A stretch of DNA of 64,000 nt from an uncultured Actinomycetes bacterium (GCA_963758575.1 CAVWWE010000007.1:4764-68763), one strand, 5' to 3'. Shown: positions 4,588-58,087, counted from the first letter of the stretch. Made by a program: numbers and translations. The notes: generated by a model not told the origin, from the letters alone.

Positions 4588-4597
4588 GAGGACCTGG

Positions 4598-5398: not shown

Positions 5399-5404
5399 CC
5401 AGTA

Positions 5405-5599
5405 CTAGTCCTGGGGGCGCAGCTCGTCTTCCTGGCCGGCCGGGTCCGGGCCGCCGAGGTCATCCCGCTGGCCTGCCGGGTCCGGTCCGCCCAGTTCGTC
5501 CTCCGGGCCGGCGTCTGTGCCCAGCTCGTTTTCCGGGCCGGTGTCCGGTCCGCCCAGCTCGTCTTCTGGCCCGTGGTCCGGGCCGCCAAACACACTCAT
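5405..5599 (-). CDS. small (64 aa) highly acidic tandem-repeat protein, unknown function
   Basis: ATG at 5599 preceded by GGGGGAGG 5 nt upstream. The product MSVFGGPDHGPEDELGGPDTGPENELGTDAGPEDELGGPDPAGQRDDLGGPDPAGQEDELRPQD consists of five GGPDxGPEDEL-like units. The longer listed ORF start at 5656 lacks an RBS. Confidence 0.45.
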   Translation of the reverse strand: MSVFGGPDHGPEDELGGPDTGPENELGTDAGPEDELGGPDPAGQRDDLGGPDPAGQEDELRPQD

Positions 5600-6088
5600 C
5601 TGACCTCCCCCGAGGTGGTGGCGTGTGCCTACGGTGCACTCCTTTCCCGTTGCCACCAGTGCCGAACCGGGCCAGCCCGGGCCAAATGGGTACCCGGATT
5701 AACGATGCGGGATCCGCGCCCCGTGAGTGAGCCTGTGACCAGCGCACAGGGAGTATCGCTGGGGAGCCTGTGGGCCGTCCCCGTGGTCCGGTGCAGTTGG
5801 GGGCCCGCCGCAGACCACGGGGGCATCCAGCGCTCTGACCAGCCCATGGCCAGCCGTTCCCGCCCGGTGTGGTCAATGTGGCGGAAATGGGTCAGCTGTG
5901 CGCCGGAACATCCCTGAGTTTGGCCGATGGGTGATAATTGCCGGTTATCCAGGCAAGACACCAATCGGCAGGTGACAATGTCGCCAGGGATCGCCCGCCA
6001 TAACGCACGGAGGTGTGGCGACTGGTGAGGTTGGTAATGGGGATGATCAACGGGGCGCCACGTCTATTGGCCCGCCGGGGGCGCGGCC

Positions 6089-8948
6089 ATGCGGGGACGT
6101 GATCGCGAGCAGGAAATCGCCCTCGGATTTGTCCGCGACGGTGCCAGCCGTCACGGCGGGGTCCTGCTCATCGAAGGCGAACCAGGCATCGGCAAATCGG
6201 GGTTGCTCCGGACCGCCGTCGATGAGGCGGCCCGGCGGGGGTTCTCCCTCGTCGCGGCGGCCGCGGACGAGCTGGGCCGGGCGGTGCCGTTCGCCCCGCT
6301 GCTGTCGGCACTGCACGGATCGTTCGGGCCGCCGCCGCCCGAGGCCGGCCACGCCGACCCGGCGGAGGCGGGCTCGACCGACCCGGCGGAGGCGGGCATC
6401 TGGCCGGTGGACAAATTCCGCGTTCTGCTGGAACAGCGCGCCGGGGATCATCCGGTGCTGGTCAGCCTCGATGACCTGCACTGGGCCGATCGGGCCACGC
6501 TGGCCGCGCTCCGTGTGCTGCCCAGCCAGCTGGCCGCCTATCCGGTGGTCTGGCAGCTGGCCCGGAGCACCGCGGCGCCGGGCAACGGGGCCGAGCTGCT
6601 GTTCGACCTGCTGGAGCAGGACGGGGCGGACCGGGTCACGCTCGGCCCGCTCAGCGACGACGCGGTCGCCGGGGTCGTCGCGGACATGCTGCACGCGAAG
6701 CCGGATGCCGGGCTGACCGAACTGTCCGCCGGGGCCGGGGGCAATCCGTACCTGCTGGTGGAGCTCTTAACTGGGCTCCGCGAAGAAGACACCATCCAGG
6801 TCGCCCGGGGGCGGGCCACGCTGGTCTCGGCCCGGCTGCCGGACCGGGTCCAGCGGGCCGTGCGGGCCTGGCTCGGCGGCCGCAGCAGCCGGGTCCGGCC
6901 GCTGCTGGAGACCGCGGCCGTGCTCGGCCGGTCGTTCCGGCTCGAGGACGTGGCCGAGATGCTGGGCGAGGCGCCAGCAGCGCTGCTTCCGCTGCTGAAC
7001 GAGGCGCTGCAGGCGAGCCTGCTGGCGGCCGGGACGGACGACTTCAGCTTCCGGCACGGCCTGGTGTGGCAGGCCATTACCGAGTCCGTGCCGCTGCCCG
7101 CCCGGCTGGCTCTGCACCGCCAGTTTGGCGGCATGCTGCTGGCCCGCGGCGGCTCGGCCGTGGCTGCGGGTGCGCACCTGCTGGCCAGCGCCCGGCCCGG
7201 CGACACGGCGGCCGTCGATGGCCTGGACCAGGCCGCGGCGGAAGCGCTTGGCGCCGCCCCCGCGACCGCCGCCGACCTGGCCGTGCGGGCGCTGGAGCTG
7301 ACCGCGCCCGCGGACCCGGCCCGGATGCAGCGGTCTGCCCGGGCGGCCGAGTCGCTGGCCGCGGCGGGCCGCCTGGCCGACGCCGGGAACATCGCCCGGG
7401 TGGCCCTGGCCCAGCCGCTGCCGGCCGCTGCCGCGGCCCCGCTGCGCTGCGCCATGTCCGCCATCCTGGCCGCGGACGGCCACCCAGATCAGGCCGACGC
7501 GATGGCCGAGTCGGTGCTGGCCACACCGGGGCTGACGAGCCGGCTCCGCGACGAGGCGTTGATCACCCAGTTGCGCGCGCGGGCCGTGCTGGGCGACACC
7601 ATCAGGTCCCGGTCCCTGGCCGAGGCCATCCTGGCCGCCCCGGATCAGCACAGCGTGGCCGCCGTGGCCGGCGCGGAACTGGTGCTGGCCGCCATCAGCT
7701 GGGAGGACGGCTGGGCCAGCCGGGGCCTCGGGCACGCCCGCAGCGCGGTCCGCCGGATCAGCGGGATCTCGCCGGACGCGCGGCACTTCCAGCCGCTGCT
7801 CACCCTGGCCGCGATGCTGGTCGACCTGCGCATGCTGGACGAGGCGTCGGCTGTCATCCAGGCCGCGGCCGGCGACGGCCAGGCACTGCGGTCGAGCGGC
7901 ACGGAACCGGTGCCCGGCATCCTGCGCGCCCGGGCCGACCTGGCCCTGGGACGGACCGATGCCGCCGCGGCCGGGGCGGAGACAGCGCTCCGCACCGCCC
8001 GCGCGCAGAACCTGCCGCTGCACTGCTCAGTGGCGCTGAGCGTGCTGGGTACGGTGGCGATGCGCCGCGGCGACCTGCGGGCCGCAGCCGGCCACCTGCG
8101 CACCCGGCGGAGCTATCCGCAGCGCCGGCTGGTATGCGCGGACCGCGACGCTGCTGGCCGAGGCGCAGGTCACCGAGGCCGCTTCCGGGGCGGCCGCAGC
8201 CATGGCGCTGGCCGGCCCGATCTACCGTGAGCTGCCCGGCCGCCGCTCGGTGCTGATCGGCGAGCCCACCGCGCCGGCCTGGCTGGCCCGCACCGCGCTG
8301 GCCGCGGGCGAGCGGCAGCGCGCCGCCGACGTGGCCTGGATCGCCGATGAGATCGCCCGGCTCAACCCGGTGCTCAAGATTGCCGCGACCGCCGCGGTGC
8401 ATTGCCGCGGCATCGTCAGCCGCGACCCGGCCCGGCTGGCCCAGGCCGCGGCCGAGCACCCGGACCCGTGGGCCCGGGCGTCGGCCGCCGAGGACCTGGC
8501 CACGCTGCTGGCCGCGGACGGCGACCAGGCGGGCAGCATCAGGCAGCTGGACCAGGCAGCCGGTGGCTACGGCCAGGCCAGCGCCACCCGCGACATGGCC
8601 CGGGTGCGCCGCCGCCTGCGCAGGCTCGGGGTGCGCCGCCGGCACTGGGCTCCCGGCGGCGGGCCGGGCACCGGGTGGGACAGCCTGACCGAGACCGAGC
8701 GGGCCATCACCGCCCTGGTCTCTGAGGGGCTGAGCAACCAGCAGGTGGCGGAGCAGATGTACCTGAGCGTGCACACCGTGGCCGCGCACCTGCGGCAGAT
8801 CTTCCGCAAGCTCGGCATCGGCTCCCGGGTCGAGCTGACCAGGCTGGCCATCGAGGATGGGCAGCGCCGGGAGCACGGGCACCCGGCGCCGCCCAGCTGG
8901 CGGCCGCGGCCCGGCCGCCAGCATCACCCGCGCCGCGATCGCGGCTAG
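6089..8948 (+). pseudogene. large ATP-binding LuxR-family (LAL/MalT-like) regulator, frame broken near 8105-8130
   Basis: N-terminal P-loop (LLIEGEPGIGKSGLL) and Walker B (VLVSLDDLHWAD), long Ala/Leu-rich TPR-like middle, C-terminal LuxR HTH (LTETERAITALVSEGLSNQQVAEQMYLSVHTVAAHLRQIFRKLGI). The two halves are ORFs 6089..8230 (frame 2) and 8202..8948 (frame 0). Frame 0 already reads sensibly from about 8130 (WYARTATLLAEAQVTEA). Confidence 0.8.
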
Positions 8949-8952
8949 CAGG

Positions 8953-10623
8953 TCACCGCGCTGGACATGGGTTGTTGGGCAGGATGTTCCGGAAATCATT
9001 GATGACGTTCGCGCTGCCACCGCCCATCTGGGTGTACGACAGTGCCAGCAGCGAGCCGTACCCGGCGTTGCGCCCGAAGTCGGTGATCTGACCCGGGATG
9101 CTGTTGCCGAACTGCCAGACGCAGCCGTGCCTGGTGTTGGTGATCGAGTAGAACGGGTAGAACGCGGCCGGCTGTTTCTGGTCGGTCTGCGGGATCAGCG
9201 TGCAGCCCGCGCCGGTGGCCGTGTTGCACGTTGATTCGATGGCCGGCAAGTCGGTTTCCAGCGCGGCTCGCTGATATTGCTGTCTGTAGCCCGGCCCGGT
9301 GGTCGGGCTGGTGAACTGGAACGGCGCCGGGTGGTCCTGCAGGTTGCCGTCCGGCCAGAGCTTCTGGTACGACGCGCCGTCGAACCCGGTATTGGTGTAC
9401 GAGCAGCCGTTCACCCGGTAGACCAGTGCCTCCGATCCGGGGAAGCAGAACAGGTCGTCGGCGTCGGGTGCCGAGGCAGTCGGCCCGCGGCCCTCGGTGT
9501 TACCCGTGGGGCACGTGGTCGGGTTGCCGTTCGGCAGCAGGCCGAACGGGGTGGCCGGGATCTTCTTCGGGCCGGTGCAGAACTGGAAGTGGCCGATCTC
9601 GGTGTCGAACGCGATGTTGTACGAGCCCGCCGCCCAAGTGACCCGGGTCTTGGTCGATGACGTGCTGTACAGCGGGTGGAAGTTGTACGGGAGAGCCGTG
9701 CACGACTTGCCCGTGGGGGCGTACTTGACCTGTGCGAACCCGTTGGCCGCGCTGGCCGTCATGGACCCGGTGGCGCCGGTGGTCAGGTCACGCAGGATGA
9801 CCTTGAGGCCGTTCCTGGTGTCGGTCATGGTCGCCTGGATCCGGTCCCCGGGGTTCATGTACAGGTCCTGCGAACTGGGCGTGAAGGTCTTCACGGTTGC
9901 GTTGACCGGGTTGGCCGGCGCCTGCGCCTTCCCGTTCTTGGTGACGAAGGCGAAGTTGACGTACTCCTCACCCACCTTGGCCAGGCAGGTCGGGTTGAGC
10001 GTCTTCCCGGTCACCGGGTTGAGCGCCAGGCTGTCGATGTTCAGCGCGGCGCACCACTCGGTCGGGTTGCATGAACTGGCGCCCACGGCCACCTGCCAGG
10101 TCGGCCACGGCACCCAGCCGGGTGGGTAGAACTGCAGTTCCGTGTAGGCCTGCCCGACGTGCTTGGGCGAGACCGCGGGATCCAGGATGTTGCGGTCGCT
10201 GGCCGCCGGGCACTTCTTGACCTGCTCCGGGTAGGACTGCGTGGCGCACATGGCCATGCCCAGCCATTCGGCCCCGCTGAGCTCGAACGGGTACGACTTG
10301 TTGACCGCGTTGGGATGGCTGGCCGACGGGGCGGTTGGCAGCGTCAGCGTGTAGCGCAGGTGGCTGCCCGAGCCCGGTGTGTTCGAATAGAACAGCGCGG
10401 AAGGCTCGTCGTGCCCGACATAGTGGCCGAACACGCCGTAGGAGTTCTGCACCTCGGTGCACAGGCCACTGGCGTGGGCGCAGTTGATGTGCGCGTGCGC
10501 GCTGGTGGCGTAGGCCGGGGTGCTGGCTGCGGCCTGGGCCGCGGTGCCGCCGGTGAGCGCCAGTGGTGTCGCCACCAGCGCCGCCGTCACGGCCACGGAG
10601 AGCAAGGATCTGACCGGTTTCAT
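8953..10623 (-). CDS. secreted Cys-rich protein of unrecognised family (paralogue A)
   Basis: Start ATG 10623 with GAGGAGG 6 nt upstream. Signal peptide MKPVRSLLSVAVTAALVATPLALTGGTAAQA. About 530-aa mature part with many conserved Cys and blocks YVGHDEPS, ELQFYPPGW, MNPGD, ETDLPAIE and FYPFYS. About 45-50% identical by eye to the ORF pieces at 15548-17221. Confidence 0.75.
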   Translation of the reverse strand: MKPVRSLLSVAVTAALVATPLALTGGTAAQAAASTPAYATSAHAHINCAHASGLCTEVQNSYGVFGHYVGHDEPSALFYSNTPGSGSHLRYTLTLPTAPSASHPNAVNKSYPFELSGAEWLGMAMCATQSYPEQVKKCPAASDRNILDPAVSPKHVGQAYTELQFYPPGWVPWPTWQVAVGASSCNPTEWCAALNIDSLALNPVTGKTLNPTCLAKVGEEYVNFAFVTKNGKAQAPANPVNATVKTFTPSSQDLYMNPGDRIQATMTDTRNGLKVILRDLTTGATGSMTASAANGFAQVKYAPTGKSCTALPYNFHPLYSTSSTKTRVTWAAGSYNIAFDTEIGHFQFCTGPKKIPATPFGLLPNGNPTTCPTGNTEGRGPTASAPDADDLFCFPGSEALVYRVNGCSYTNTGFDGASYQKLWPDGNLQDHPAPFQFTSPTTGPGYRQQYQRAALETDLPAIESTCNTATGAGCTLIPQTDQKQPAAFYPFYSITNTRHGCVWQFGNSIPGQITDFGRNAGYGSLLALSYTQMGGGSANVINDFRNILPNNPCPAR

Positions 10624-42923: not shown

Positions 42924-43664
42924 TCAGCCCAGCTCGCGGGCGATGGCCGGGATCCGGTCCAGCAGGCTGGCCAGGCTGGCCGCCGAGCGGCCGGGCTCGC
43001 CGGCCGTCATCAGGTGCGCCATGCCCGCGTCACCCGCCGCGGCCGCGGCCGGGATCCAGTCCAGCATGGTCCGGATGCGCTGCGGCACGGCGTGCAGGAT
43101 CTGGCCCGCGTCCGGCCCGCCATAGCTGGCGGCAATGATCCGTAGCCGTTCCGCGGCGCTCTCCGCTCCGGTATCGCGCCACAACGGCACCCCATTCCAG
43201 GCAATGAACGCCAGTTCCAGCAACCGGGTCGTCGGTCCTGCCATGTCCCAGTCGAAGACGCCCGTGACGTCGTCGCCCGCGAAGCACACGTTGTAGGGAG
43301 CGATGTCGTTGTGCCCGATCAAGGTCGGCCCAGGGAACGGGCAGTACCGCCACGGCCCAGGGTGGGCGAAGCCGGTCACCACGTCGTGGAAGGCCCGGGT
43401 CCAGTGGACCATGGCCTGGAGTTGACCCGTGCTGAGCAGTTCGCGGTCCTCGTCGAGGACGTGCCCGGGCAGGTAGGACAGCACCTCGCGGCCCCGGTCG
43501 TCGTAACCGAGGACACGGGGAATGTGCGGGACACGATCTGCCAGGTAAGCGAGCAGCGCGTGCACGGCCGGCGTCCATGGCCCGGTGGCCCGGTGCACCG
43601 TGCCGCCAACCCGGACCGCTCCCCCGACGTTGCCCGCCAGGTGCACTTCGTCGTCTGCCACCAC
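42924..43664 (-). CDS. phosphotransferase (APH/choline-kinase-like) family protein
   Basis: LIGHNDIAPYNVCF (HxDxxxxN) and GVFDWDMAGP (DxD) blocks. Confidence 0.75.
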   Translation of the reverse strand: MVADDEVHLAGNVGGAVRVGGTVHRATGPWTPAVHALLAYLADRVPHIPRVLGYDDRGREVLSYLPGHVLDEDRELLSTGQLQAMVHWTRAFHDVVTGFAHPGPWRYCPFPGPTLIGHNDIAPYNVCFAGDDVTGVFDWDMAGPTTRLLELAFIAWNGVPLWRDTGAESAAERLRIIAASYGGPDAGQILHAVPQRIRTMLDWIPAAAAAGDAGMAHLMTAGEPGRSAASLASLLDRIPAIARELG

Positions 43665-44588: not shown

Positions 44589-47547
44589 ATGACGCCGAAG
44601 CTGGAATTCTGCCTGCTCGGACCGGTAGTGGTCCGCTGCGGCGGGGTGGCCTTGCCGGTGCCGCGGGGCAGGCAGCGGGCGCTGCTCGCGGTGCTGTTGC
44701 TGAACGCCGGCCGGGTGGTGTCAGTTAGCGAGATCGCCGACACGCTGTGGGGGCCCGCGCCGCTGCCGTCAGCCGAGGCGACCGTGCGGAACTACGTGAA
44801 GCGCCTGCGGCGTGTGCTGGGCGACGTCAACCAGGCCCGGATCGTCACCCGGTCCCCTGGGTATCTGATCCGGGTTGATCCCGGGGAACTGGATGTGGCC
44901 CGGTTCGAGGTCCTGCTCGACGGCGCCCGCAACGCCGCGCGCGGTGGTTCCTGGGCAGCCGCGGCCGATCAGGCGCGCGGAGCGCTGGCGCTGTGGCGCG
45001 GCGAGCCACTGGACGATGTCGAGTCGCAGGCACTGGCGTTAACTGAAATTCCGCGGTTGATGGAACTGCAGCTTCAGGCGGCGGAGCTACAGATCGATGC
45101 GGAGCTGCGCCTGGGCCGTCACGGCGCGGGTCATCGCCGAGCTGCAGCGCTTGGCCGCAGCCCACCCGTTGCGCGAGCGCCTGCACGCGCTGCTGATGCT
45201 CGGCCTGCACCGCGACGGCCGGCAGGCCGAAGCGCTGGCCGCCTATCAGCACGTGCGGGGGGTGCTGGTAGCTGAGCTGGGCACCGAGCCAGGAACCGAA
45301 CTGCGTGAGCTGCACCGGCAGATCCTCACCACGAGCCCGGCGCTGGCCGGCGCTGAGCCCGCGCAGTTGCCCGCTGGTGCCGCCTGGCGAGCGGGCGCGC
45401 AGCCGGCACCGGTAGTGCCACGGGAGCTGCCGGGCCCGGTGCCGCAGTTCACCGGCCGGGCCGCCGAGCTGGCCGGCCTGACCGGGATGCTGGACCGGGC
45501 CAGCGCGCAGCGGCCGCCGACGCTGGTGATTTCGGCGATCGCCGGGATGGCCGGGGTGGGCAAGACGGCGCTGGCCATGCAGTGGGCGCACCAGGTGGCG
45601 GACCGGTTCCCGGACGGGCAGCTGCATGTCAACCTGCGTGGCTATGACCCTGGCCAGCCGGTGCCGGCCGGTGACGCCCTGGCCGGGTTCCTGCGCAGCC
45701 TGGGTGTGACCGAGCAGGATATCCCGGCCGAGACCGGGGAGCGTGCGGCGCGGTACCGGAGCCTGCTGGCTGGCCGTCGGATGCTCATCATGATCGATAA
45801 CGCGGCGGATGCGGAGCAGGTCCGGCCGCTGCTGCCCGGCAGCCCAGGGTGTGTGGCCGTGGTGACCAGCCGCGACGCGCTGGCCGGGCTGGTGGCCAGG
45901 GACGGGGCCCGCCGACTGGACCTGGGCCTGCTGCCGCCCGCCGAGGCGGTGGGGTTGCTGCGGGCGCTCATCGGCGCACGAGTGGATGCTGAGCCGGAAG
46001 CGACTGCGACGCTGGCCGGGTACTGTGCCTGGCTCCCGCTGGCCCTGCGGGTGGCCGCCGAGCGCGCCGCCGTCGCACCCGACCTCACGCTGGCGGACGT
46101 GACGTCGGAGCTGGCTGACCAGCAGGAGCGGCTGGACCGGCTGGACGCGGCCGGGGACCGGCTGACGGCGGTCCGGACCGTGTTCTCGTGGTCGGTCCGG
46201 CACCTGGATGAGGCGACTGCGCGCGCGTTCCGGCTGCTTGGACTGCACCCCGGCGCGGATTTTGATGCCTATGCCGCTGCCGCGCTCACTGACACCACGC
46301 TGCGGCAGGCTCGCTGGCTGCTGGACCGGCTGGCCCGCGCGCACCTGATCCAGCCCGCCCGGGTGGGCCGATACGGCATGCACGACCTGCTCCGCGCCTA
46401 CGCCGCCGGCCAGGCTGCTGCCCAGGACAGCGAGCAGGAGCGGGGCGCGGCGCTGACCCGCCTGTTCGACCACTACTTGGCCACCGCCACCCACGCCGCC
46501 GGTACCTTGTTCCGCGCCGACCCTGACCAGCCCGCGATGTCCCAGCCCGCCGGCCCGGTGCCGCCGGTCACCAGCCCGGCCGCCGCGCTGGCCTGGCTCG
46601 ACGTGCACCGGTCCACGCTGGTCGCGGTGGCCGCGCACGCCGCCGACCATGGCTGGCCCGGCCACGCCATCGGCCTGGCCGGCACCATCTTCCGCTACCC
46701 GGATGTTGGCCACTTCGGCGATGCCGCCGCGATGCACCGTCATGCCCGCCGCGCCGCCGCGCAGGCCGGCGACCGGACCGCCGAAGCGGCGGCGCTGACG
46801 ATGCTCGGTACTGCCGACGCTGCCCGGGGCCGTCTCCGCCAGGCCACCAGGCATCTCGGGCAGGCCCTGGCCCTATGTCGTGCGGACGGTGACCGGATCG
46901 GGGAGGCCCGCGCACTCGGCCGCCTCGGCCATGCCGTTTACTGCCAGGGCCGCTACCAGCAATCGGCTGGGTACCACCAACGGGCCCTCGCCATCTACCT
47001 GGAGGTCGGTGACCACGCCGGTGAAGCCGTTGAGCTGCACCAGCTCGGCGTGGTTGACCTGCGGCAGGGTCGTTACGAGCAGGCCGCCGGTCAGCTGCGC
47101 CGATCGCTGACGTTCTTCCACGGCGCCGGGTTCCGCTCGGGCGAGGCCGCGGTGCTGGGCAACCTCGGCGAACTCGAGTTGCGGCAAGGCCATTATGTGC
47201 AGGCCGCCGGCCATCTCCGCCAGTCCCTGGGGCTAGGCCGCGAGACCGGTAGCCGGTTGTGCCAGGCCCGGGCCCTGGCCTACCTGGGCATGTGCGAGCT
47301 GCGGCAGGGCCGCGGGCGGCAGGCCATCGGCCTTCTCCGGCGGTCGCTGGCCCTGCACCGGCAGGCCGGCAACCCCTCTGGTCAGGCCGAGGCGCTCAAC
47401 GAACTTGGCGAGGCGTTCCTCGCCACCAGCCAGGCCGGCCAGGCCGGCGCCCGACACGCCGCTGCGCTGGCCCTGGCGATCCAGAGCGGTGACCGGCACG
47501 AACAGGCACGGGCCCGTAGTGGCCTGGCCAGCGCCTGCCAGGCCTGA
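44589..47547 (+). pseudogene. AfsR/SARP-family regulator (OmpR-type wHTH plus BTAD plus NB-ARC ATPase plus TPR), frameshift near 45125-45130
   Basis: LEFCLLGPVVVRCGGVALPV...LLAVLLLNAGRVVSVSEIADTLWG (wHTH), ALALWRGEPLDDV and HPLRERLHALLMLGLHRDGRQAEALAAYQHVR (BTAD), P-loop IAGMAGVGKTALA, then about 8 TPR-like repeats. ORFs 44589..45275 (frame 0) and 45097..47547 (frame 1) join if one G is removed from CACGGCGCGGGTCATC. Confidence 0.85.
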
Positions 47548-47597
47548 TCAGCTCAGAGCCGGCCGGTCAGGCGCTGCATGGCGGCGGGTTTGGGCGC

Positions 47598-50282
47598 CTA
47601 GCTGATGGCTCCGGTATCGCCGGCTCCCGGCGGGCCGGCTGGGCGGGTGGGTTCAGGTGACGCTTCCGCTAGCGCGTACTCAACGGCGCGGCTGCCTCCA
47701 AGGGACTGTCCCCGTGTCCAGGCCTGCTCGAATGCCGCATCTCCCATGCGGGAGCGCAGCGCGGCCAGGAAACCCTCGTCGTGGGCGGCGCGGGGCACGA
47801 CCGCGTGCAGCCAGCCGCTGCCCTTGGCTTGCAGGAGCGCGCCTGCGGCGGCGAGCAGATGCACGGCGCGCTCCAGGTTGTCCTGCCGGATGGCGACCGC
47901 GGCCAGTGCCTCGAGATAGTAGGCGACGCTTGGTTCGTCCCCAGCCTCGGCAGACTGCGACATCCCTTCCTGCAGGCGTTCCGCCGCGCCGGTCAGATCG
48001 CCCTGTGCCTGGCTGCTGAGCGCCAGGTCGTAGAGCGAGATGAGGATGGTGAACCGGTCCTGCGCGCTGCGGGCCGCGTTCAGGCCCTCGGTGAACAGCT
48101 GCGCTGCGCGGTCGTGATCTGCCTGGCTGAGCCGGATCTGGCCGAGGAAATTGCACACGAGCGCCACGTCCAGTAGGTGCTGGGCACGCTCGGGTCCGGC
48201 GAGCCGATCGTTGCCTGCCTCCTGTAGCGGGGCGAGCGTCTGTTCGAGCAACTCGCTGGCCCGCGCGTCCTGGTGCTGCAATGCCAGGAGGTGACCCAGC
48301 ATGGCTGCCGCCGTGGCTGCGCCCAGCATGTCCCCGGCCTGGCGGTACAGCGGCAGGCTTTGCTCCAGCAGCGGCTGCGCTGTGGCCTGGTCCCCGGACG
48401 CGAAGAGGCCGAAGCCGGTGCCGCTCAGCGCCAGGGCACGCTGCCGCGGCGGCAGGTGTTCGCTTTTGGCCAGGACGTCCACGTAGGAAGCCAGTTCCTC
48501 GGCGTGGCCGCGCAGCCACCAGAACCTCCATGTCGCCCAGGACAGCTGTATCGCCGACTCGATCTGGTCCTGTTCCACCAGCCAGGACATCGCGGCGCCG
48601 AGGTTGCCGTGCTCGGTCTCGAGCCGCTCCAGCCACACCAGCTGTCCGGGACCTTGCAGCTCGGCTGGAGCCGGCTCGGCGAGCGCCAGGAAGTAGGCCG
48701 CGTGCCGGTCGTGCGCCTCCCGCCAGTCAGCGCCGTCGCGCAGGCGCTCCAGCGCGTACTCCCGGATGGTCTCCAGCAGACCGAAGCGCGGCTCGCCGTC
48801 ACGCACCTGCGGCTGCACCAGGCTGCTGTCCACCAGCGAGCCCAGCGTGTCCATGACGTGCCCGGCCCGGCCCGGGTCGGCCGGCCCGGCGGCGCCGACG
48901 GCCTCTGCGGCGGGCAGGTCGAAGGTTCCTGCAAACACCCCTAGGCGGGCGAATAGCGCCTGCTCGCCGCCAGACAGCAGATCGAAGCTCCAGTCCAGGG
49001 TGTTTCGCAGTGTCTGCTGCCGCTCAGGCTGGTCGCGCGCTCCGCCCGTCAGCAGCCCCATCCTGTCGTTGAGCCGGGCCAGCAGGGCCTGCGGTGGCAG
49101 CAGCCTGACCCTGGCGGCCGCCAGCTCGATGGCCAGCGGCAGCCCATCCAGCCGCCGGCAGATCTCGGCGACCGCCCCGGCGTTCCCGCTGGTCAGCTCG
49201 AAACCCGCGGACGCGGCTTGGGCCCGCTCCACAAACAGGCGCACCGACGCGCATCGCTGCACGTCCGCGGCGGCCCCGCCGGCCCCGATCGGTGGCACCG
49301 GGAGCGTCGGTACCGGGAACTCGTGCTCACCGCTGAGCCGCAACACCGTCCGGCTGGTCACCAGCGCCACCACGCCGGGAGCGGCGCCCAGCAGCTCAGC
49401 CACCAGCGGAGCCGCCCCTATCACCTGCTCGAAGTTGTCCAGCACCAGCACCAGCCGCCGGGCGCGCAGGTATGACTTCAGGTCGGTGATCAGCGCGCCG
49501 CCCGAGGTGTTCAGCCCCAGCGCGGCGGCGATCGCCGCCGTCACCAGCTCGGCCGCCCGGACCGAACCGAGCTCAACGAACCGCACCCCGTCCCGGAAAC
49601 CCGGACCCACCCGCTGCGCGACCTCCACCGCGAGCCTGCTTTTCCCGACTCCGCCCGGCCCGGTGAGGGTCACCAGGCGCACGCCCTCGGCACGCACCAG
49701 GTCGCTCACCGTCGCGGCGTCATCGTCGCGGCCCACAAGCGGCGTCGCCGGCACCGGCACCGCTTCTGGAAGCGACGCCTCGTCCACGGCGCCGTCCCCC
49801 GATGGCGTCCTCTCGAACCGCTCGCTCAGCAGCACGGCCAGGTCGTTCTCGACCAGGCGCTGCAGCTCGGCGGCAGCAGAGAAGTGCTGGTAGGACACGC
49901 CACCGTCATCCCTGATCCGGGTCAGCATCTCCGTCAGCCGCGACTCACGCTCCGGCGCCGGCGACTTCACATAGATGAGCCTGGGCAGCCCCGCCGACAG
50001 TAGGTACTCATCCTCCAGCCCGGATACCTGTTCCCCCGGCGCGACCCAGCCGTAGCTCTGCCAGTACACCCCCACGAACACCTGGCTCTGCGCCAGGTAG
50101 GAGCGGTAGACCTGCCGCGGCGGATGCGGCCGGGCGCCCAGCTCGAACATCACCGGCACCAGCCGCAGACGGGTCACCGCGTGCCGCACGGCCTGCCGCT
50201 CCGCGGCCAGTTCCTGCAGCGTGGAACTCACAAAGACCCGCAACCGCTGGTCGGGCGTGCGGATCAGATCCGTCTCGGCCAT
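47598..50282 (-). CDS. DUF4062-like N-terminal domain plus NB-ARC/STAND ATPase plus TPR protein (NLR/Avs-like architecture)
   Basis: Start ATG 50282 (MAETDLIRTPDQRLRVFVSSTLQELAAERQAVRHAV...VPVMFE...VFVGVYWQSYGW). Walker A LTGPGGVGKSRLA, Walker B RLVLVLDNFEQV, GLPLAIELAA, winged-helix block LFARLGVFAGTFD, then about 350 aa of TPR-like repeats. Convergent with the SARP gene across a 50-bp gap. Confidence 0.8.
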   Translation of the reverse strand: MAETDLIRTPDQRLRVFVSSTLQELAAERQAVRHAVTRLRLVPVMFELGARPHPPRQVYRSYLAQSQVFVGVYWQSYGWVAPGEQVSGLEDEYLLSAGLPRLIYVKSPAPERESRLTEMLTRIRDDGGVSYQHFSAAAELQRLVENDLAVLLSERFERTPSGDGAVDEASLPEAVPVPATPLVGRDDDAATVSDLVRAEGVRLVTLTGPGGVGKSRLAVEVAQRVGPGFRDGVRFVELGSVRAAELVTAAIAAALGLNTSGGALITDLKSYLRARRLVLVLDNFEQVIGAAPLVAELLGAAPGVVALVTSRTVLRLSGEHEFPVPTLPVPPIGAGGAAADVQRCASVRLFVERAQAASAGFELTSGNAGAVAEICRRLDGLPLAIELAAARVRLLPPQALLARLNDRMGLLTGGARDQPERQQTLRNTLDWSFDLLSGGEQALFARLGVFAGTFDLPAAEAVGAAGPADPGRAGHVMDTLGSLVDSSLVQPQVRDGEPRFGLLETIREYALERLRDGADWREAHDRHAAYFLALAEPAPAELQGPGQLVWLERLETEHGNLGAAMSWLVEQDQIESAIQLSWATWRFWWLRGHAEELASYVDVLAKSEHLPPRQRALALSGTGFGLFASGDQATAQPLLEQSLPLYRQAGDMLGAATAAAMLGHLLALQHQDARASELLEQTLAPLQEAGNDRLAGPERAQHLLDVALVCNFLGQIRLSQADHDRAAQLFTEGLNAARSAQDRFTILISLYDLALSSQAQGDLTGAAERLQEGMSQSAEAGDEPSVAYYLEALAAVAIRQDNLERAVHLLAAAGALLQAKGSGWLHAVVPRAAHDEGFLAALRSRMGDAAFEQAWTRGQSLGGSRAVEYALAEASPEPTRPAGPPGAGDTGAIS

Positions 50283-50551
50283 CACTCCACAGCCTAGGCA
50301 GGCGCACGCGGTCCCGCAGGACACGCCCAGAACAGCTTCATCTGCGCGGCCGCCACTGCTTGCCAGCCACGGCGCCTAAGCATGCATAACAGCGGATAGT
50401 TGTTCGTCACGCCTTCTTGATCGGGTAATCACATGGAGTGGCTTCTGGCCGTCGGCTGGCACAGATGGCTGCTGTCCGGGCGGCAGTAGGATCATGGCAC
50501 CGGCCCGCACGGGCGGGGCCCGCGGTGCCGGGTGCTACCGGGGAGGTCGCC

Positions 50552-51685: not shown

Positions 51686-53376
51686 GTGGCCTGGGCCGCA
51701 CCGCGTGAACTGGATCGGCTGCGCGGCAGCCAGGCACGCGGAGCGCTGGGCAAACCGCTGGTGCCGGCCAGTGTTGCATCGCCGCGGCTGGCCGATGAGC
51801 TGTTCGCGCGGCTCCTGACCTACGGCACGCCGCACGAGACTCACCGGGGCGATGTACTGTTCCGGCCGGGTGACGAAGACGTCAACCTGATCGTGGTCGA
51901 CCGGGGTTCGGTGGAGGTTGTCCGGACGGAAACGGTCGACGTGCCCGCCGCGACCGTCGCGGCGGTGGATGCGGGCGGCTTTGTCGGCGAGCTGAACCTG
52001 CTGACCGGGCAGAATGTCTACCTGCTCTGCCGGGTGCGGGAGGGCGGCACGGTCTACCGGGTGTCGCCGGAGCGGCTGCGGCAGCTCATGGCCAACGACG
52101 TCGAACTGTCCGACATCGTCTTCAAGGCGCTAATTGCCCGCCGGGAGTTGCTGCAGCGCAGCACCGCCGCCCTAGCGGTGGAGATCGTCGGCACCGACAG
52201 GTCGGCGGCGGCGCTGGCGCTGCGGACTTACGCCGCCCGCCAGCGCCTGATCCACCTGTGGTTCGACGCCGATACCCCGGCGGGCCGGGCGATGATGGAG
52301 TCCTCCGGCCTGACCGAGGGCGACCTTCCCGCCGTCGTCATGCCTGGCGCCGCGCTGACACAGGCCACGCCGGGCGCGCTGGCCGACAAGCTCGGCCTCA
52401 GCTACCGTCGTTCGTCCACCAAGCCGGTAGACGTCACAATCGTTGGCGCGGGCCCGGCCGGCCTGGCGGCCGCAGTCTACGGCTCGTCCGAGGGCCTGGA
52501 CACCGTGCTGCTGGACGCCGTCGGCACCGGCGGGCAGGCCGCGGCAAGCTCCCGGATCGAGAACTACTTCGGCTTCCCGTTCGGCCTGTCCGGCGCCGAT
52601 CTGACCGGCCTGGCCGTGCTCCAGGCGCTGAAGTTCGGAGCCCAGCTGGCCAGCCCGTGCCAGGCGGTCAGGCTCGACACCGACCGCAACGGCGACCTGC
52701 TCCGCCTGCACCTGCAAGGCGGGGAGGTCATCGACAGCAAAGCCGTCGTCATCGCGACCGGCGCCCGCTACCGGGCACTGCCGCTGGAGCGCTGGCCTGA
52801 CTTGGAAGGCGCCGGCATCTACTACGCGGCCACCGAACTAGAAGCCCGGGGATGCACGGGCAGCCCGGTCACGGTGATCGGCGGCGCGAACTCCGCGGGT
52901 CAGGCGGCGCTGTACCTGGCCGGGCGAGGCAGTGAGGTCTCACTAGTCGTCCGCGGCCCGGACATCGCGACCGAGATGTCGGCCTATCTCGTCAACCGGC
53001 TGCTGGCCCACCCGCGGGTGACGGTACGGTGCCGCAGCGAGGTCACCCGGCTGGACGGCGGTGACTTCCTCGAGGAAGTCACCATCACCGACCGGACGGC
53101 GGACACCGCGCAAGCCCAGCCTGTGCGGGCTTGTTCTGTTATGGCGGAGCGCAGACTGGCTGAGGGATCGCAGGGGACGAGGTTTCATGGAGACGTAGCT
53201 GAGGCGGTGATGGAGGCTGGACAGGCTGGACGGCGGCGCTCGTTGAGACCAGCATCCCCGCCGTGTTCGCGGTCGGCGACGTCCACTCCGGCTCGATGAA
53301 GCGGGTCGCCGCAGCCACCGGCGAAGGCGCCAGCGCCATCGCGTCGGTACACAAGGCCATCGCCACGCTGGCCTAG
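51686..53376 (+). pseudogene. cyclic-nucleotide-binding-domain protein fused to thioredoxin-reductase-like FAD oxidoreductase; 3' end carries several frame breaks (53118-53245)
   Basis: cNMP block GDVLFRPGDEDVNLIVVDRGSVEVV...GFVGELNLLTG. TrxR blocks VTIVGAGPAGLAAAVYGSSEGL, GGQAAASSRIENYFGFP and VTVIGGANSAGQAALYLA. The last ~80 codons read CAGLFCYGGAQTG / WLRDRRGRGFMET / ALVETSIPAVFAVGDVHSGSMKRVAAATGEGASAIASVHKAIATLA in three different frames, ending at TAG 53376. The start codon is uncertain. Confidence 0.75.
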
Positions 53377-53464: not shown

Positions 53465-55230
53465 CCTGAGTTAGGTCATTTGCTTTAGTGCCTTGGGTTT
53501 GGGTCTTTCAGGGCGTTGATGATGGCGGTCTCGGCGGGGCCGAGCGCGGGCGGGAATGTGTGGATGGTGCCGTTGATCTCGATGGTTGCTGAGCGCAGCG
53601 GCCGCAGGGTCCGCAGGACGCGGCGGATGGATAGGCCGGTGCGGTTCTGCACGGTGCGGGAGACCGCCAGGGCGGTGAACACGATGGTCAGGTGGGCTTC
53701 GATCGCGTCGCGGGTGCGGGCGAACATGGGCCTGGCGGCGAGGTCTGTTTTGGACATCCGGAACGACTGCTCAACGTGCCACAGGTCGTGGTAGCTGGAG
53801 ATCACCTCGGTGGCGGGCATCACGGTTGCCGGGATGTTGGTGACGTAGCCCTTCAGGCCCACCAGCCGCTGGGCGCGGGCGAGTGCGGCCTCATCGAGCA
53901 CGAACCGGCCCCGGGCGGTCTTGACGAACCGGGGCGTGCGGGCGGGCTTGCCACCGGTGATGACCTCGCGGGCCCGGTTGGCCTGGGCGGTGAGGGTCTT
54001 GGTGTCGCGGACGGCGCGGCTGCGCGAGTATGCCCACACCGCCCGCCACGAGGTGGGGTGCACCCCGGGGTCCCACACCGGCTCGGCGAGAAGGGCCGGG
54101 TCGTTGCCGTGGTTGGGCCCGGTCTTGGGGGTGAGGGTGTCGATGACCTGCCCGTCGGTGAAGTAGTCGCCGTGCCAGCGGAAGTGTGACTCCAGGTCGA
54201 TCGGCGCCTTGGTGAGCCGGGACCCGACGATGAAGCTGCAGCCCGCGGCATCCAGCGCGGCCAGGTTCGCGGCCGAGAGCATCCCGGCGTCGGCGACGAC
54301 GGCGAAGTTCTCGGTGCCGTGCCGGGCGCGGAACTGGCTGATGACCGGCAGGATGGTGTGCTTTTCGGCCTTGTTTCCCTCGAAGCAGCCGATCTCCAGC
54401 GGGAAGCCCTGCCGGTCAACCAGCAGCCCGACCAGGATCTGCGGGTCAACCCGGCGTTCCTTGGAGTAGCCGACCTTGCGCAGCCCGTCCTCGTGCTCGG
54501 CCTCGAAATATAGCGTCGTCACGTCATACAGCACGAGCGAGACGTCGCCGCAGGCCAGCACGCGGGTGAAGCACAGCTCGGCGAGACGGCCCCGGTAGTT
54601 CCCGTCGAAGCAGCGGCGCAGCGTCCGTTTGCGCGTGGACAGGCTCGCCGACACCCGGCCCATCTCTGCCAGCACCCGGTCGGCGTCCAGCAAGCTGGTC
54701 GGCTCCACCACCCTGGCGATCACCAGGTCCCGGAACACCTCATCACCCAGCGCGTCGAACCCGAGGTCGGCATACACCCCGGCCAGCACGTCATACAGCA
54801 ACCTTGAGGCGGTCTTCAGCGTCCGCGCCCGCGGCACCACCCGCCGCGCAGCGGGCGCCGGCCCGCCGCCGAACAGTGCCGGCTGCCTGGGGCCCGGGAT
54901 CATCGCGGCCTGCCTGGCCTGCGGGGTGATGCCGAGGTCGAGAACGCCCTGCCGGTCGTCCTCCAGCAGGCGGTGGGCTTCCTCCATCAGCAGCCCGAGC
55001 TCGGCCTCGTCGCGGGCCGAGCCCACATGCCGCACGATCCTGCGCCGGCCCGCCACCGACTCCGCGATCTGCACGGCCGTCAACCCCGATGCCGTGCGAA
55101 CCCGCCGGACCCAGGCCATCACCCGAGTCTATGAGCCAGATTAGTGCCTTAACAGCACACTAAGCCCGCACATCACCGCAGGTCAGCCTGCTCCACCCCT
55201 CCGGAACTGGCCCAAGTGACCCAACTCAGG
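53465..55230 (-). mobile_element. IS1634-family (IS4-like) insertion sequence, 1766 bp, imperfect 19-bp terminal inverted repeats
   Basis: Left end CCTGAGTTAGGTCATTTGC (53465-53483). The reverse complement of the right end is CCTGAGTTGGGTCACTTGG (55212-55230), giving 16/19 identical. Single transposase ORF. The boundaries coincide exactly with the ends of the flanking direct repeats. Confidence 0.85.
53485..55122 (-). CDS. IS1634-family DDE transposase
   Basis: 545 aa. LYDVTTLYFEAE (first D), VVADAGMLSAANL (second D), YHDLWHVEQSFRMSK (Y-x-x-R/E-K type C-terminal signature). Overall layout is like IS1634/IS1549-type transposases as I remember them. Confidence 0.85.
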   Translation of the reverse strand: MMAWVRRVRTASGLTAVQIAESVAGRRRIVRHVGSARDEAELGLLMEEAHRLLEDDRQGVLDLGITPQARQAAMIPGPRQPALFGGGPAPAARRVVPRARTLKTASRLLYDVLAGVYADLGFDALGDEVFRDLVIARVVEPTSLLDADRVLAEMGRVSASLSTRKRTLRRCFDGNYRGRLAELCFTRVLACGDVSLVLYDVTTLYFEAEHEDGLRKVGYSKERRVDPQILVGLLVDRQGFPLEIGCFEGNKAEKHTILPVISQFRARHGTENFAVVADAGMLSAANLAALDAAGCSFIVGSRLTKAPIDLESHFRWHGDYFTDGQVIDTLTPKTGPNHGNDPALLAEPVWDPGVHPTSWRAVWAYSRSRAVRDTKTLTAQANRAREVITGGKPARTPRFVKTARGRFVLDEAALARAQRLVGLKGYVTNIPATVMPATEVISSYHDLWHVEQSFRMSKTDLAARPMFARTRDAIEAHLTIVFTALAVSRTVQNRTGLSIRRVLRTLRPLRSATIEINGTIHTFPPALGPAETAIINALKDPNPRH

Positions 55231-55561
55231 ACGGTGCCGCAGCGAGGTCACCCGGCTGGACGGCGGTGACTTCCTCGAGGAAGTCACCATCACCGACCGG
55301 ACGGCGGACACCGCGCAAGCCCAGCCCTGTGCGGGCTTGTTCCAGCATTCCCGCCGTGTTCGCGGTCGGCGACGTCCACTCCGGCTCGATGAAGCGGGTC
55401 GCCGCAGCCACCGGCGAAGGCGCCAGCGCCATCGCGTCGGTACACAAGGCCATCGCCACGCTGGCCTAGCGACCAAGGGACGCAGGTCGATCCGCATCGG
55501 TTCCGGGCCTTAAAGGACCAAGCCGAGTCAAAGGCCGCTTCCGCTCCCGCCCCGGCGAGAA
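55231..55561 (+). repeat. right copy (331 bp) of the long direct repeat: detached duplicate of the 3' end of the cNMP-TrxR-like gene
   Basis: See the left copy. Encodes RSEVTRLDGGDFLEEVTITDRTADTAQAQPCAGLF, then (after the 113-bp gap) SIPAVFAVGDVHSGSMKRVAAATGEGASAIASVHKAIATLA and the same TAG. Confidence 0.9.
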
Positions 55562-55665
55562 GGCTAGTTTCAACGAAGCCGGGTCACAGACTGCGATGGA
55601 AATAGACGGGCGGGACTGCACGCGTCCGCCCAGCCACCGCCGCTCACGGGGACCAGCGGCGTCGG

Positions 55666-58087
55666 CTAATGCCGCTGGTGTGCAGCGAGGCGGCGGCGCA
55701 TGATCGTGGCCTGTTCGGCTACGGCGAGCCGTAGGACGTTGTCCGGCGGCTCTGCGGCATTTGCGGCCTCGATGGCTGCCTCGGAAACGAGAGTTGCCGG
55801 GAACAGCAGGCGGCTCAGCTGTGCCTTTGGCCGCTGCCTCCTGGTGACGAGTGCGGGGAGGGCCTCGGTGAAGTACCGGTCGAGGTAGCCGGTCATCAGC
55901 TCCTCCTGCCCCGGCACCCAGATGCCGGCCGCGCAGGCCTGCGCGATCCTGGCCAGCTCGCCGGCCGAGAGGGCCACGGCCCAGGCGGCTTCCTTCGCCG
56001 CCAGGTCCGGCTGCAGGGCCAGGCAGGTCGCGCGGTTCACCTCGCCGGTGACGGGGTCGAGCCGCGGCAGCGCGTCGATGTCCTCCCCGCGCGCCAGCCC
56101 GCGTGCGGCGAGGGTGAACAGGATCCGCGCTCGCAGCTCGGCGTCGAGGGTGAGCCCGCCTGGCAGGTCCTTGCCGGCCAGCCAGGCGCCGAGCACGGCG
56201 AGCTGATCGTCGGCCTGCCCGCTGGCGGCGAAGCCGATCAACAGCTTGCGTGCGTCTCCGGCCGCGGTCCGGGTCGCGGCGGCGATCTGTTCCCTCAGGC
56301 CCGCTCGCTGGCGCGGCGGGGCCCACGCGTCGGCGGCCTCGGCAGCGCGGGCGAGCAGCGTCTCGATGCCGACCTCGGGCAGGCCGCCGGCCTGCGCCGG
56401 CGGCAGACCATGTCGGTGAACTGCGCGGCCGGCAGCTCGCCGCTGGTGACCAGCAGCCAGAACCCGTTCCAGCACACCGCCTCGCTGAGCGGATCGCCCA
56501 CCTGGCAGGCGGCCGCGGCCAGCGCTCGCGCGGACCGGACGTCGAACCCGGTCCGCGTGTAGGAGAGGTCCTGGTCGTTGAGCACCACCGCGTCCGCGGA
56601 GGTAAGCCCGGCCACCACGGTCCGCTCCCCGTCGAGCTCCGCATGCACCAGACTGCGACGGTGCAGCTGGCCGTCCCTGTCCAGGTCGTAGAGCCCGATG
56701 CCGATCCGCTGCCGGCGCGGTACGTCCTGGATGACGGCGCCGTCTGCGTCCAGCCGGATCGAGGTCGTGCCCTCGGCGCGCAGCCACTGGTCCGCCCAGC
56801 CGGCCAGGTCCTGCCCGCTGGACCGGGACCAGCATCCGACCAGGTCGTCCAGCGTCGCGCTGCTGAAGGCGAACGTGGTCAGGTAGTCGCTCAGCCCGCG
56901 TCGCAGCGTGTCGTCGCCGATCAGCGCGGCGAGGGAGCGGATGACGCTGGCGCCCTTCACGTAAAGGATGCCGAACGGCTTGTCCCGGCCCTGCGTGGCC
57001 GTGCTGACCGAGACGACACCGGCTCCCGGCTCGGCAGCTCGTCCGCCTGATAAGCCACCGGCTTGTCCGTGTAAGCGAACCCGGCCCACGACAGCGATTC
57101 GCTGACCCCGGCGACCGCGGCCAGCGCGGCGTACGACAAGTAGGTGGCGATCGCTTCGTCGAGCCACACGTCGTCCCACCACCGCGGCCCCACCAGGGCG
57201 CCGAACCACAGGTGTGCCACCTCATGCGCGCAGATCATCGCGCTCTGCTGGTCGCCAGCTGCCTCCGGCCGCCCCAGTAGCTTCTCGTTCACCACCATCA
57301 GGCCGGGGACCGACAGCGCCATGGGGGCCAGGTCGGGCATGAACACGATGTCGTACGCGGGGTAGGGGCACGGCACGCCGAGGCTGTCGGCGTACCAGGC
57401 GATGGCATCGCGGGCATAGCCGGCGAACCGGGGCAGGGAAGCCACCGCCGCCTGGCCAAGTAGCGACTGCCGGTGCCGGACGGTCACTGCCGTCCGGCCC
57501 GCCTCGGTACGCGCTGCCGTCGAGAACGGCCCGGCGCAGAACGTCAGGTCGTACGGCCGCATCCCGCTGACCGGCGTGAACGTGCACACATCGCCCTCGC
57601 GCCGGGCGAGCCGGCCGTTCGCCACGCACTCCCACCCGTCGGGGACGCGCACCGCGAACCGGAACGTCGCGGTCAGATCCGGCTGGTCAAAGCAGCAGAA
57701 CAGCTCCGGCCCGCAGTCCGGGTAGCAGAACGCCATCACGTAGCTCGCGCCGTCCGCCGGATCGGTGAACCGGCTCAGCCCCCGCCCCTCTTGGGAGTAC
57801 CCGGCCTCGGCCTCCACCACCAGGACCGCCTGATCACCCCCGCCGGCCCGGCTCAGCCGCAACCGGCCGTCCTCGGGTGGCGGCAGGGTCACCCCATCGA
57901 GAGTCACGCCGCGCACGCCCTGGGTGCGCAGCTCAGCGACCGTGCTCACGCCCGGCCGCAGCCACCTGAACCGGACCTCGGTTCTGGAAAGCACCGGCTC
58001 GGCCGCCAGGTCGAGAAACACATCATACGAATCGACTTCGATAGCCCGCGCGCGCTCAGTCGCCTCACCCTGGGTCAGATCCGCCAC
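55666..58087 (-). pseudogene. pepN: M1-family aminopeptidase N-like protein, two frame breaks (about 57020-57045 and about 56395-56410)
   Basis: HEVAHLWFG...WLDEA zinc site in ORF 56957..58087. FGILYVKGASVIRSLAALIGDDTL in ORF 56295..57209. The ERAP1-like C-terminal region is in ORF 55666..57225. All pieces are collinear. The span is 2422 nt. Confidence 0.8.

Follow-up and report, generated by a model that had tools for sequence, protein, structure and literature searches.

An actinomycete NLR-like STAND protein with a DUF4062/NIR head, a predicted NAD+ hydrolase, encoded at differing genomic sites

The gene examined here encodes a large NLR-like protein and lies on a 64,000-nucleotide (nt) stretch of DNA from an uncultured Actinomycetes bacterium (GCA_963758575.1 CAVWWE010000007.1:4764-68763; hereafter the window, in whose coordinates all positions are given). 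The minus strand carries a single long open reading frame (ORF) at 47598..50324, in which an ATG at 50282, with GGAG just before it, gives a product of 894 amino acids (aa); this start codon is common to the orthologues, and homology begins 15-30 nt upstream of the ATG. Compared with 33 other copies, the window copy is without frameshift, gap or motif lesion. All peptides quoted in a preliminary description of this DNA are present in the 894-aa translation, and an exact-sequence look-up of the window protein found no record. The coding sequence and the parts of its product, with the evidence for each, are as follows.

47598..50282, minus strand: complete coding sequence of a DUF4062(NIR)-STAND NTPase-TPR, NLR-like protein of 894 aa (ORF, translation, Pfam domains)
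49809..50246, minus strand: DUF4062/NIR TIR-like domain, residues 13-158 (Pfam, profile matches to solved structures, AlphaFold2 (AF2) model)
49293..49727, minus strand: P-loop nucleotide-binding domain, residues 186-330 (Pfam NB-ARC, AAA_16 and AAA_22, motif conservation)
49638-49661, minus strand: Walker A, GPGGVGKS, within the P-loop domain
49434-49454, minus strand: Walker B, LVLVLDN, within the P-loop domain
48663..49292, minus strand: helical ARC-like region, residues 331-540, presumed to hold a winged helix (invariant GLPLAIE motif)
49125-49145, minus strand: GLPLAIE, within the helical ARC-like region
47667..48662, minus strand: TPR solenoid, residues 541-872, presumed sensor of a ligand or trigger (TPR_12, helical repeats in the AF2 model)

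The tripartite layout proposed in the preliminary description, with a DUF4062 module followed by a STAND nucleoside triphosphatase (NTPase) and a TPR array, was borne out by Pfam matches, conserved motifs and a TPR solenoid, and is observed directly. DUF4062 (Pfam PF13271) matched residues 15-93 (E = 7.2e-18, 65 bits against a cut-off of 24.7), which establishes the family that the preliminary description had proposed for the N-terminal module; NB-ARC matched residues 193-283 at 28.3 bits against a cut-off of 23.5, over profile positions 10-108 of 248 only, AAA_16 and AAA_22 also matched the NTPase part, and TPR_12 matched residues 616-684. The STAND motifs were verified in their coordinates, namely Walker A (residues 208-215), Walker B (277-283) and GLPLAIE (380-386, the GLPLAI signature already pointed out), together with a TSR311 motif in the P-loop domain. 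Walker A, Walker B and GLPLAIE are intact here and invariant or near-invariant both in 34 orthologues and in 53 divergent relatives, the latter being DUF4062-STAND-TPR representatives of 36-55% overall identity, and TSR311 is conserved in both sets. The full-length AF2 model reached a predicted template modelling score (pTM) of 0.45 overall, with a confident helical-repeat solenoid at ~530-870 and with residues 380-520 modelled as disordered at a predicted local distance difference test score (pLDDT) of ~30; the Pfam scan of the protein returned no winged-helix family. A fold search with this model retrieved the STAND-TPR structure 6mfv, a generic match, and the TPRs of LGN and KLC, and the model was judged too poor for assignment to a STAND clade. 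An OmpR-type winged-helix DNA-binding domain, a BTAD domain and a LuxR domain were all absent from the protein in the Pfam scan.

The head was placed in its family chiefly by sequence profiles. When a profile built from 14 divergent heads was run against the sequences of the PDB, it matched the Swarozyc protein KpSwz (10wc_A, E = 4.3e-6) and human TEP1 (11gz_A, E = 0.0046), while tblastn of the head found the Evangelion (Eva01)-type protein on Staphylococcus aureus plasmids (E = 6e-6), and a DUF4062 match was present in 53 of the 53 divergent relatives. The AF2 model of residues 1-175 (pLDDT 77, pTM 0.74) contains five β-strands alternating with five helices in the order βαβαβαβαβα (βA 15-21, αA 23-38, βB 42-48, αB 56-64, βC 68-74, αC 88-95, βD 101-106, αD 114-126, βE 129-134, αE 137-158), in agreement with the five-strand, five-helix topology described for KpSwz. 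Foldseek searches of the head against a PDB library older than the KpSwz and TEP1 structures returned flavodoxin, Ras and PurE folds at E ~1e-4 and TIR domains at a best template modelling (TM) score of ~0.55 and E ~1e-3, with all matches at TM ≤ 0.56; since this search was non-discriminating and its library predates the relevant structures, the sequence profiles were relied on instead. The kinship with TIR and nucleoside-deoxyribosyltransferase folds that had been suggested earlier is upheld by the literature and by the profile matches to the TIR-like domains of KpSwz and TEP1. Across Actinomycetota, Chloroflexota and Bacteroidota the head remains 58-81% identical and the whole proteins 38-48%. 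No part of the protein is more constrained than the head, which is what an enzymatic domain would be expected to show.

The preliminary description knew of no biochemical function for fusions of DUF4062 to STAND NTPases, and three 2026 preprints have since overtaken that statement by reporting antiphage nicotinamide adenine dinucleotide (NAD+) hydrolase (NADase) activity for this family, including a DUF4062-STAND-TPR protein, Avs2. Osinski et al. identified DUF4062 as a TIR-like NADase domain and showed that KpSwz depends on E97, is activated by the phage portal and causes NAD+ depletion and abortive infection, with the same NADase activity in the head of human TEP1; Ibarra-Chavez et al. described Eva01, with residues F11 and E87-Y88 (for Swarozyc and Evangelion, bioRxiv 10.64898/2026.05.01.722283 and 10.64898/2026.06.25.731849; PDB 10wc/11cq/11cv). 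Le Mouellic et al. renamed DUF4062 as NIR and reported that PsAvs2 of Pseudomonas chlororaphis, a DUF4062-STAND-TPR protein, senses the phage terminase and responds with E108-dependent NAD+ depletion and defence (bioRxiv 10.64898/2026.09.04.749371). Taken across these preprints, the family has NADase activity in vitro, NAD+ is lost during infection and mutation of the catalytic Glu ends defence; the products formed by four tested bacterial DUF4062 systems and by TEP1 are ADP-ribose and nicotinamide, and in KpSwz and TEP1 a BB loop, running from the residue equivalent to E47 of the window protein, occludes the pocket.

To locate the active site, the window head was aligned with KpSwz, with an Eva01-type protein recovered from S. 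aureus plasmids (in which F11, E87 and Y88 fit the published numbering) and with a homologue recovered from a Rhodococcus plasmid, and three MAFFT modes agreed. The residues concerned, and their equivalents in the other three proteins, are listed below.

50232..50234, minus strand: F17, conserved aromatic of βA (MAFFT)
50142..50144, minus strand: E47, the Glu of VMFE, last residue of βB and start of the BB loop (MAFFT, AF2 secondary structure)
50004..50024, minus strand: active-site motif S87-G-L-E90-D-E92-Y93 (SGLEDEY), invariant in the 53 divergent relatives (MAFFT)
50007-50009, minus strand: E92, predicted catalytic Glu at the start of helix αC
E92 = KpSwz E97 = Eva01 E87 = Rhodococcus E80: catalytic position
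Y93 = KpSwz F98 = Eva01 Y88 = Rhodococcus W81: aromatic residue after the Glu
F17 = KpSwz F22 = Eva01 F11 = Rhodococcus F4: aromatic residue of βA
E90 = KpSwz E95 = Eva01 E85 = Rhodococcus H78: not universal, His in Rhodococcus
E47 = KpSwz E52 = Eva01 E41 = Rhodococcus E34: residue proposed in the preliminary description

E92, Y93, F17 and the whole S-x-x-E-x-E-Y motif are invariant across the 53 divergent relatives; E47 is likewise invariant in the relatives and conserved family-wide. A pairwise phmmer alignment, shifted in register by 2, had put E90 on KpSwz E97, and a profile alignment to KpSwz alone put E90 on E95; this conflict was resolved when Eva01 and the Rhodococcus homologue were added, the multi-sequence MAFFT alignment overruling the pairwise one. 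The predicted catalytic Glu is therefore E92, at the start of αC, with which the experimentally defined Glu of KpSwz and of Eva01 aligns, and not the VMFE Glu favoured before, so that E92 rather than E47 is the residue of choice for mutation in this protein.

The site of the gene differs between almost all related species. Together with a short leader and tail, it recurs at 92-96% nucleotide identity in ~45 species-representative metagenome-assembled genomes (MAGs; loci L001-L062), with the closest copies in MAGs of uncultured Actinomycetes and Streptosporangiaceae rather than in Streptomyces. Homology with the window extends no more than 15-35 nt beyond the start and stop codons, and none of the window's neighbours recurs beside any orthologue. 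The 8-kb flanks were without sequence common to any other locus in 37 of 44 cases upstream and 38 of 43 downstream, and where flanks were shared they were 77-88% identical against 93-95% for the gene, which is thus the more conserved. A paralogue group at 64-75% identity provides an internal control, being syntenic and having gene identity equal to flank identity; in seven loci (L032, L038, L039, L041, L047, L056 and L059, at ~4000-9900 in each) a large LuxR/MalT-type (LAL) regulator and an FAD-linked oxidase stand ahead of the paralogue. Two or three members of the gene family occur together in several genomes. Near-identical genes in non-homologous flanks indicate that a single-gene unit has moved recently, either horizontally or within genomes. 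Chimerism of the MAGs is an unlikely cause of the varied contexts, because dozens of non-homologous flanks would each need to adjoin a real copy, and because the truncation points vary by locus and several independent projects contributed the loci.

A leader and a tail accompany the gene. The leader measures up to ~270-420 nt and exists in two or three variants, whose junctions lie 15 or 61 nt ahead of the ATG; the tail measures up to ~165 nt, and both are truncated at points that differ between loci. In the window they are represented as follows.

50283..50398, minus strand: conserved leader, type A, containing a CCTAGG element and the GGAG ribosome-binding site
47576..47597, minus strand: remaining 22 nt of the ~165-nt conserved downstream tail that goes with the gene in most other loci

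Relative to type A of other loci, the window leader is shorter by 137 nt, owing to a clean deletion between two direct repeats of GCGCCTGC (50298-50313). The tetranucleotide CTAG occurs 45 times in the window where 169 are expected, a 3.8-fold deficit, and yet a palindrome containing it stands ~12-30 nt ahead of the start codon in almost every orthologue and in several paralogues (loci L001-L062, with L033, L036, L042, L053 and L054 named in addition; window 50294-50299). It takes the forms CCTAGG, CTAGCTAG, CTAGCTATAGCTAG or CTACGTAG, alternative leaders join there, and it may serve as an operator or as a site of recombination. In L006, at ~9955-10000, the 5' junction including the gene start is tandemly duplicated, as TAGGCTGGAGTAATGGTCGAG and then TAGCTAGGCTGGAGTAATGGCCGAG, which looks like a recombination footprint at the boundary of leader and gene.

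Known kinds of mobile unit were considered and set aside. A transposon-like unit was rejected, as terminal inverted repeats and target duplications did not exceed chance and the flank segments are not dispersed repeats, and an integron cassette was rejected for want of an attC-like element. Among the neighbours of orthologues (the two nearest ORFs per side at 36 loci, 131 ORFs in all, scanned without system-level rules) there was no recurrent transposase, with two DDE_3 and two IS110 matches, and no linked recombinase. Neither Rfam nor promoter/terminator scans found anything in the leader or the tail, and no plasmid or phage copies of the gene were found. A ~3.1-kb unit of gene, ~270-nt leader and ~165-nt tail may form a cassette complete in itself, one that some unrecognised mechanism moves about in actinomycete genomes and from one to another, spreading a TIR-like NADase on a PknK/LuxR-type chassis; we put this forward as a speculative and distinctly unlikely proposal. 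The nearly identical gene at differing sites is in any event a concrete case of single-gene mobility.

All three parts of the gene are under purifying selection. In intact orthologous copies the ratio of nonsynonymous to synonymous substitution rates (dN/dS) was 0.34 overall, at a dS of 0.14, and was lowest in the head (0.25), intermediate in the NTPase (0.35) and highest in the TPR region (0.41). A premature stop, frameshift or altered length was seen in 5 of 39 near-identical copies (L017, L034, L051, L057 and L060); these could be real pseudogenes or errors of long-read sequencing or assembly.

The chassis on which the head sits was compared with other STANDs. The STAND-TPR core (~175-873) is ~35% identical over ~700 aa to Rhodococcus proteins annotated as protein kinase, such as WP_029256975.1, in which an N-terminal kinase domain is followed by a core homologous to the window protein, and the best plasmid matches, which these proteins belong to, also include a LuxR-type regulator, likewise at ~35% over ~700 aa. 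This shared core we take to be the PknK/LAL type of actinobacterial STAND. NCBIfam gave weak AfsR/HaaT matches, and phmmer of the STAND-TPR part against PDB sequences gave no match. Signalling STANDs of the PknK, LuxR and AfsR kinds share the LVLDN-type Walker B and the GLPL motif with the window protein and differ in their output, a kinase or DNA-binding domain there and a TIR-like predicted NADase here. Among the 53 relatives (representatives P0294-P0420), six also carry an adenylate/guanylate cyclase domain and one a domain binding cyclic nucleoside monophosphates (cNMP), fusions which hint that the chassis may be linked to cyclic-nucleotide signalling. The family is large: an exhaustive search of 1.84 billion representative proteins gave 3,072 matches at E ≤ 1e-3 and 752 at E ≤ 1e-30, the latter being clusters at 50% identity and mostly 840-1090 aa long, and the best 150 matches belong to separate 50%-identity clusters with heads 62-91% identical to the window head. 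This breadth was seen by the exhaustive search; when only the head, or a profile, served as query, the matches listed held only relatives at least 65% identical. The phage collection contained no relative of the head.

The preliminary description had further held that a convergent neighbour of the gene, encoding a SARP-NB-ARC-TPR protein, carries the same NB-ARC-TPR core and exemplifies module swapping on a common chassis. The likeness stands at the level of the superfamily, but BLASTP of the neighbour against the window protein aligned the TPR repeats only (28% over 207 aa) and left the NTPase unaligned, and the adjacency of the two genes is found in no orthologous locus. Module swapping is seen with the PknK-type kinases, the LuxR regulators and the cyclase fusions; it is not demonstrated by the SARP neighbour.

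We consider the product probably, with moderate confidence, to be an NLR-like protein that is gated by a ligand and oligomerises in an NTP-dependent manner, with NAD+ hydrolysed by its clustered DUF4062 heads. At rest, the TPR arm together with the NTPase would hold the protein monomeric and the head inactive, with a BB loop starting at E47 occluding the pocket as its equivalent does in KpSwz and TEP1. Once a specific macromolecular trigger had bound the TPR solenoid, nucleotide-dependent oligomerisation would become possible, and the activated heads would deplete NAD+ and bring about arrest or death of the cell. The NADase chemistry and the activation by oligomerisation are proposed by analogy with characterised relatives; least certain is that the trigger would be a phage protein and the outcome abortive infection. 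In favour of this mechanism, F17, S87-x-x-E90-x-E92-Y93, both Walker motifs and GLPL are all intact, and the scattered distribution of the gene fits a mobile accessory or defence gene.

The closest functional counterpart is PsAvs2, compared here by its description. It has the same order of DUF4062 head, STAND NTPase and TPR-type sensor and an effector of the same family with a catalytic Glu (E108 there, the predicted E92 here), and its sequence of trigger binding, oligomerisation and NAD+ depletion is the one expected for the window protein by analogy. It differs in that the window protein and its relatives are without a PADLOC Avs match and without defence-island context, and in that the core here resembles actinobacterial PknK/LuxR-type STANDs in a Streptosporangiaceae-type actinomycete host. 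KpSwz and Eva01 have a homologous head with aligned active-site residues and a β-α topology like that modelled for the window head, whereas they are single-gene proteins of ~290-330 aa with DUF4062 and a small AUX domain and without an NTPase; KpSwz is activated by assembly on the phage portal, while in the window protein a STAND NTPase and ~330 aa of TPR stand between sensing and output. Identity between their heads and the window head is 26-31%, and their Q/W/E motif is not kept here. Human TEP1, NWD1, NWD2 and NPHP3 likewise place a DUF4062 head directly before a STAND NTPase and a repeat sensor, but the NTPase is of the NACHT rather than the NB-ARC-like kind, the repeats are WD40 rather than TPR, the TEP1 head has large inserts, and the cell biology (vault, telomerase) is unrelated.

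Several observations weigh against the NADase-defence reading. The NADase activity would be carried over from relatives outside this subfamily and outside actinomycetes, the fold search did not separate TIR from other flavodoxin-like folds, and the core is, as judged by sequence, most similar to signalling STANDs (PknK-type kinases and LuxR regulators). PADLOC-DB 2.0 gave no Avs or other defence model for the window protein or the 53 relatives, with a generic TPR model only; by the available family models the protein is thus not a member of Avs1-5, while the tripartite Avs-type architecture is present. No recognised defence gene lies within ~15 kb in the window, and among the 131 neighbouring ORFs of the 36 orthologous loci only ~5 had a strong match to a defence model (JetB, RT, IetA, AriA and PycTIR, one each), the remainder being regulators, oxidoreductases and transporters, with TetR, SDR, sigma-70, MFS, CBS and hydrolases as the commonest Pfam families. 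Enrichment in defence islands, a check named in the preliminary description, is seen neither in the window nor among the two nearest ORFs per side at those loci. The TPR region shows no hypervariable patch among the 34 orthologues, and a 2026 survey found defence and non-defence STAND clades interspersed.

The signalling-type chassis and the missing defence context therefore leave room for a non-phage role or for other chemistry. The same machine might respond to an endogenous or environmental ligand, as do STANDs of the PknK, MalT, AfsR and LuxR types, and, in a filamentous actinomycete, bring about a regulated growth arrest, dormancy or the programmed death of a hyphal compartment through its NADase. 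We hold this to be possible though unlikely: the nearness of the core to kinase- and LuxR-linked STANDs, the weak AfsR/HaaT matches, the relatives that combine head and chassis with cyclase or cNMP-binding domains, the genomic context, the interspersed non-defence clades and the stable synteny of the 70% paralogue with a LAL regulator and FAD oxidase all speak for it, but all bacterial DUF4062 proteins tested so far act in phage defence, a scattered distribution resembling horizontal gene transfer better suits a selfish or defence gene than a housekeeping regulator, and NAD+ depletion seems too drastic for routine signalling. It is quite improbable that the head performs a different reaction, whether as a nucleotide or nucleoside N-glycosidase (CMP-hydrolase or deoxyribosyltransferase-like) or by making a signalling nucleotide from NAD+, so that another metabolite is depleted or a partner is signalled. 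In its favour, DUF4062 lies between two clans, those of TIR and of nucleoside deoxyribosyltransferases, published structural searches bring up a CMP hydrolase as well as ribosyltransferases, the initial annotation of the PsAvs2 head was CMP hydrolase, and the heads studied here form a distinct, tightly conserved branch lacking the Q/W/E motif of Evangelion and Swarozyc (RQVY in αB vs QWE in KpSwz); purified human NWD1, NWD2 and NPHP3 were assayed with TEP1, and the text consulted reports activity for TEP1 only. Against a different reaction stand the uniform products of the four bacterial systems and TEP1, the conserved catalytic Glu and its aromatic neighbour, and the fact that no partner gene travels with the unit. 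Least probable by far is that the head serves as a non-enzymatic oligomerisation or adaptor module, as many animal TIR domains do, and that the protein is simply a scaffold or regulator; an adaptor role is common among TIR-like folds and the fold search was non-discriminating, but the catalytic residue of the relatives, the S-x-x-E-x-E-Y motif and F17 are invariant in 53 divergent proteins, in a head that is the most constrained part of the protein.

NIR-headed NLR-like proteins were first described in 2026, and the question of the effector has largely been resolved by others; what still merits attention is the clade in actinomycetes, the chassis of PknK/LuxR type and the single-gene unit that roams between sites. 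If the ligand-gated NADase reading holds, NIR/DUF4062 NADase effectors would extend into soil actinomycetes and would sit on a STAND clade missed by defence-finder models, with at least 752 clusters at 50% identity. One STAND-TPR chassis would then be found with kinase, DNA-binding, cyclase or NADase output, and the family would lend itself to the study of how STANDs pass from signalling to immunity.

The surroundings of the gene in the window comprise, on one side, a frameshifted SARP gene, an APH fragment, an MFS transporter, a DUF885 gene, an alcohol dehydrogenase and a transketolase, and on the other an RraA-like gene, a cNMP-binding oxidoreductase, an IS4-type transposase, M1-peptidase fragments and a RibD_C gene. 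The convergent SARP-NB-ARC-TPR (AfsR-like) gene (44589-47547, plus strand) is split over two reading frames, with Trans_reg_C and the first half of BTAD in 44589-45275 and the remainder in 45097-47547, by a single-base frameshift at ~45127-45131, within GGCGCGGG; the choice lies between a pseudogene and a sequencing error in a G/C run. The OmpR-type winged-helix and BTAD domains at this locus belong to this neighbour only and not to the STAND gene. An IS4-type DDE transposase with overlapping or fragmentary M1-peptidase ORFs beside it, and an APH ORF, occupy 53485-55122, 55466-58087 and 42924-43664 (all on the minus strand); in the APH ORF only a short C-terminal part of the Pfam model is matched (profile positions 165-218 of 239). 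G+C is locally lower, at 0.69-0.70, over 50-56 kb, and the transposase, the fragmentary ORFs and the lower G+C suggest a decaying, rearranged accessory region. The gene for the cNMP-binding oxidoreductase lies at 51686-53299, and its resemblance to the cNMP-bearing relatives is probably a coincidence. In a context shared by four orthologous loci (L004 5310-7217, L008 7503-9874, L014 5621-7963 and L027 484-2856) the gene stands directly downstream of a large protein with the Pfam ternary complex associated domain 9 (TCAD9), a family previously linked to NTP-dependent conflict systems, and in these loci a phosphatase-like region follows the TCAD9 protein.

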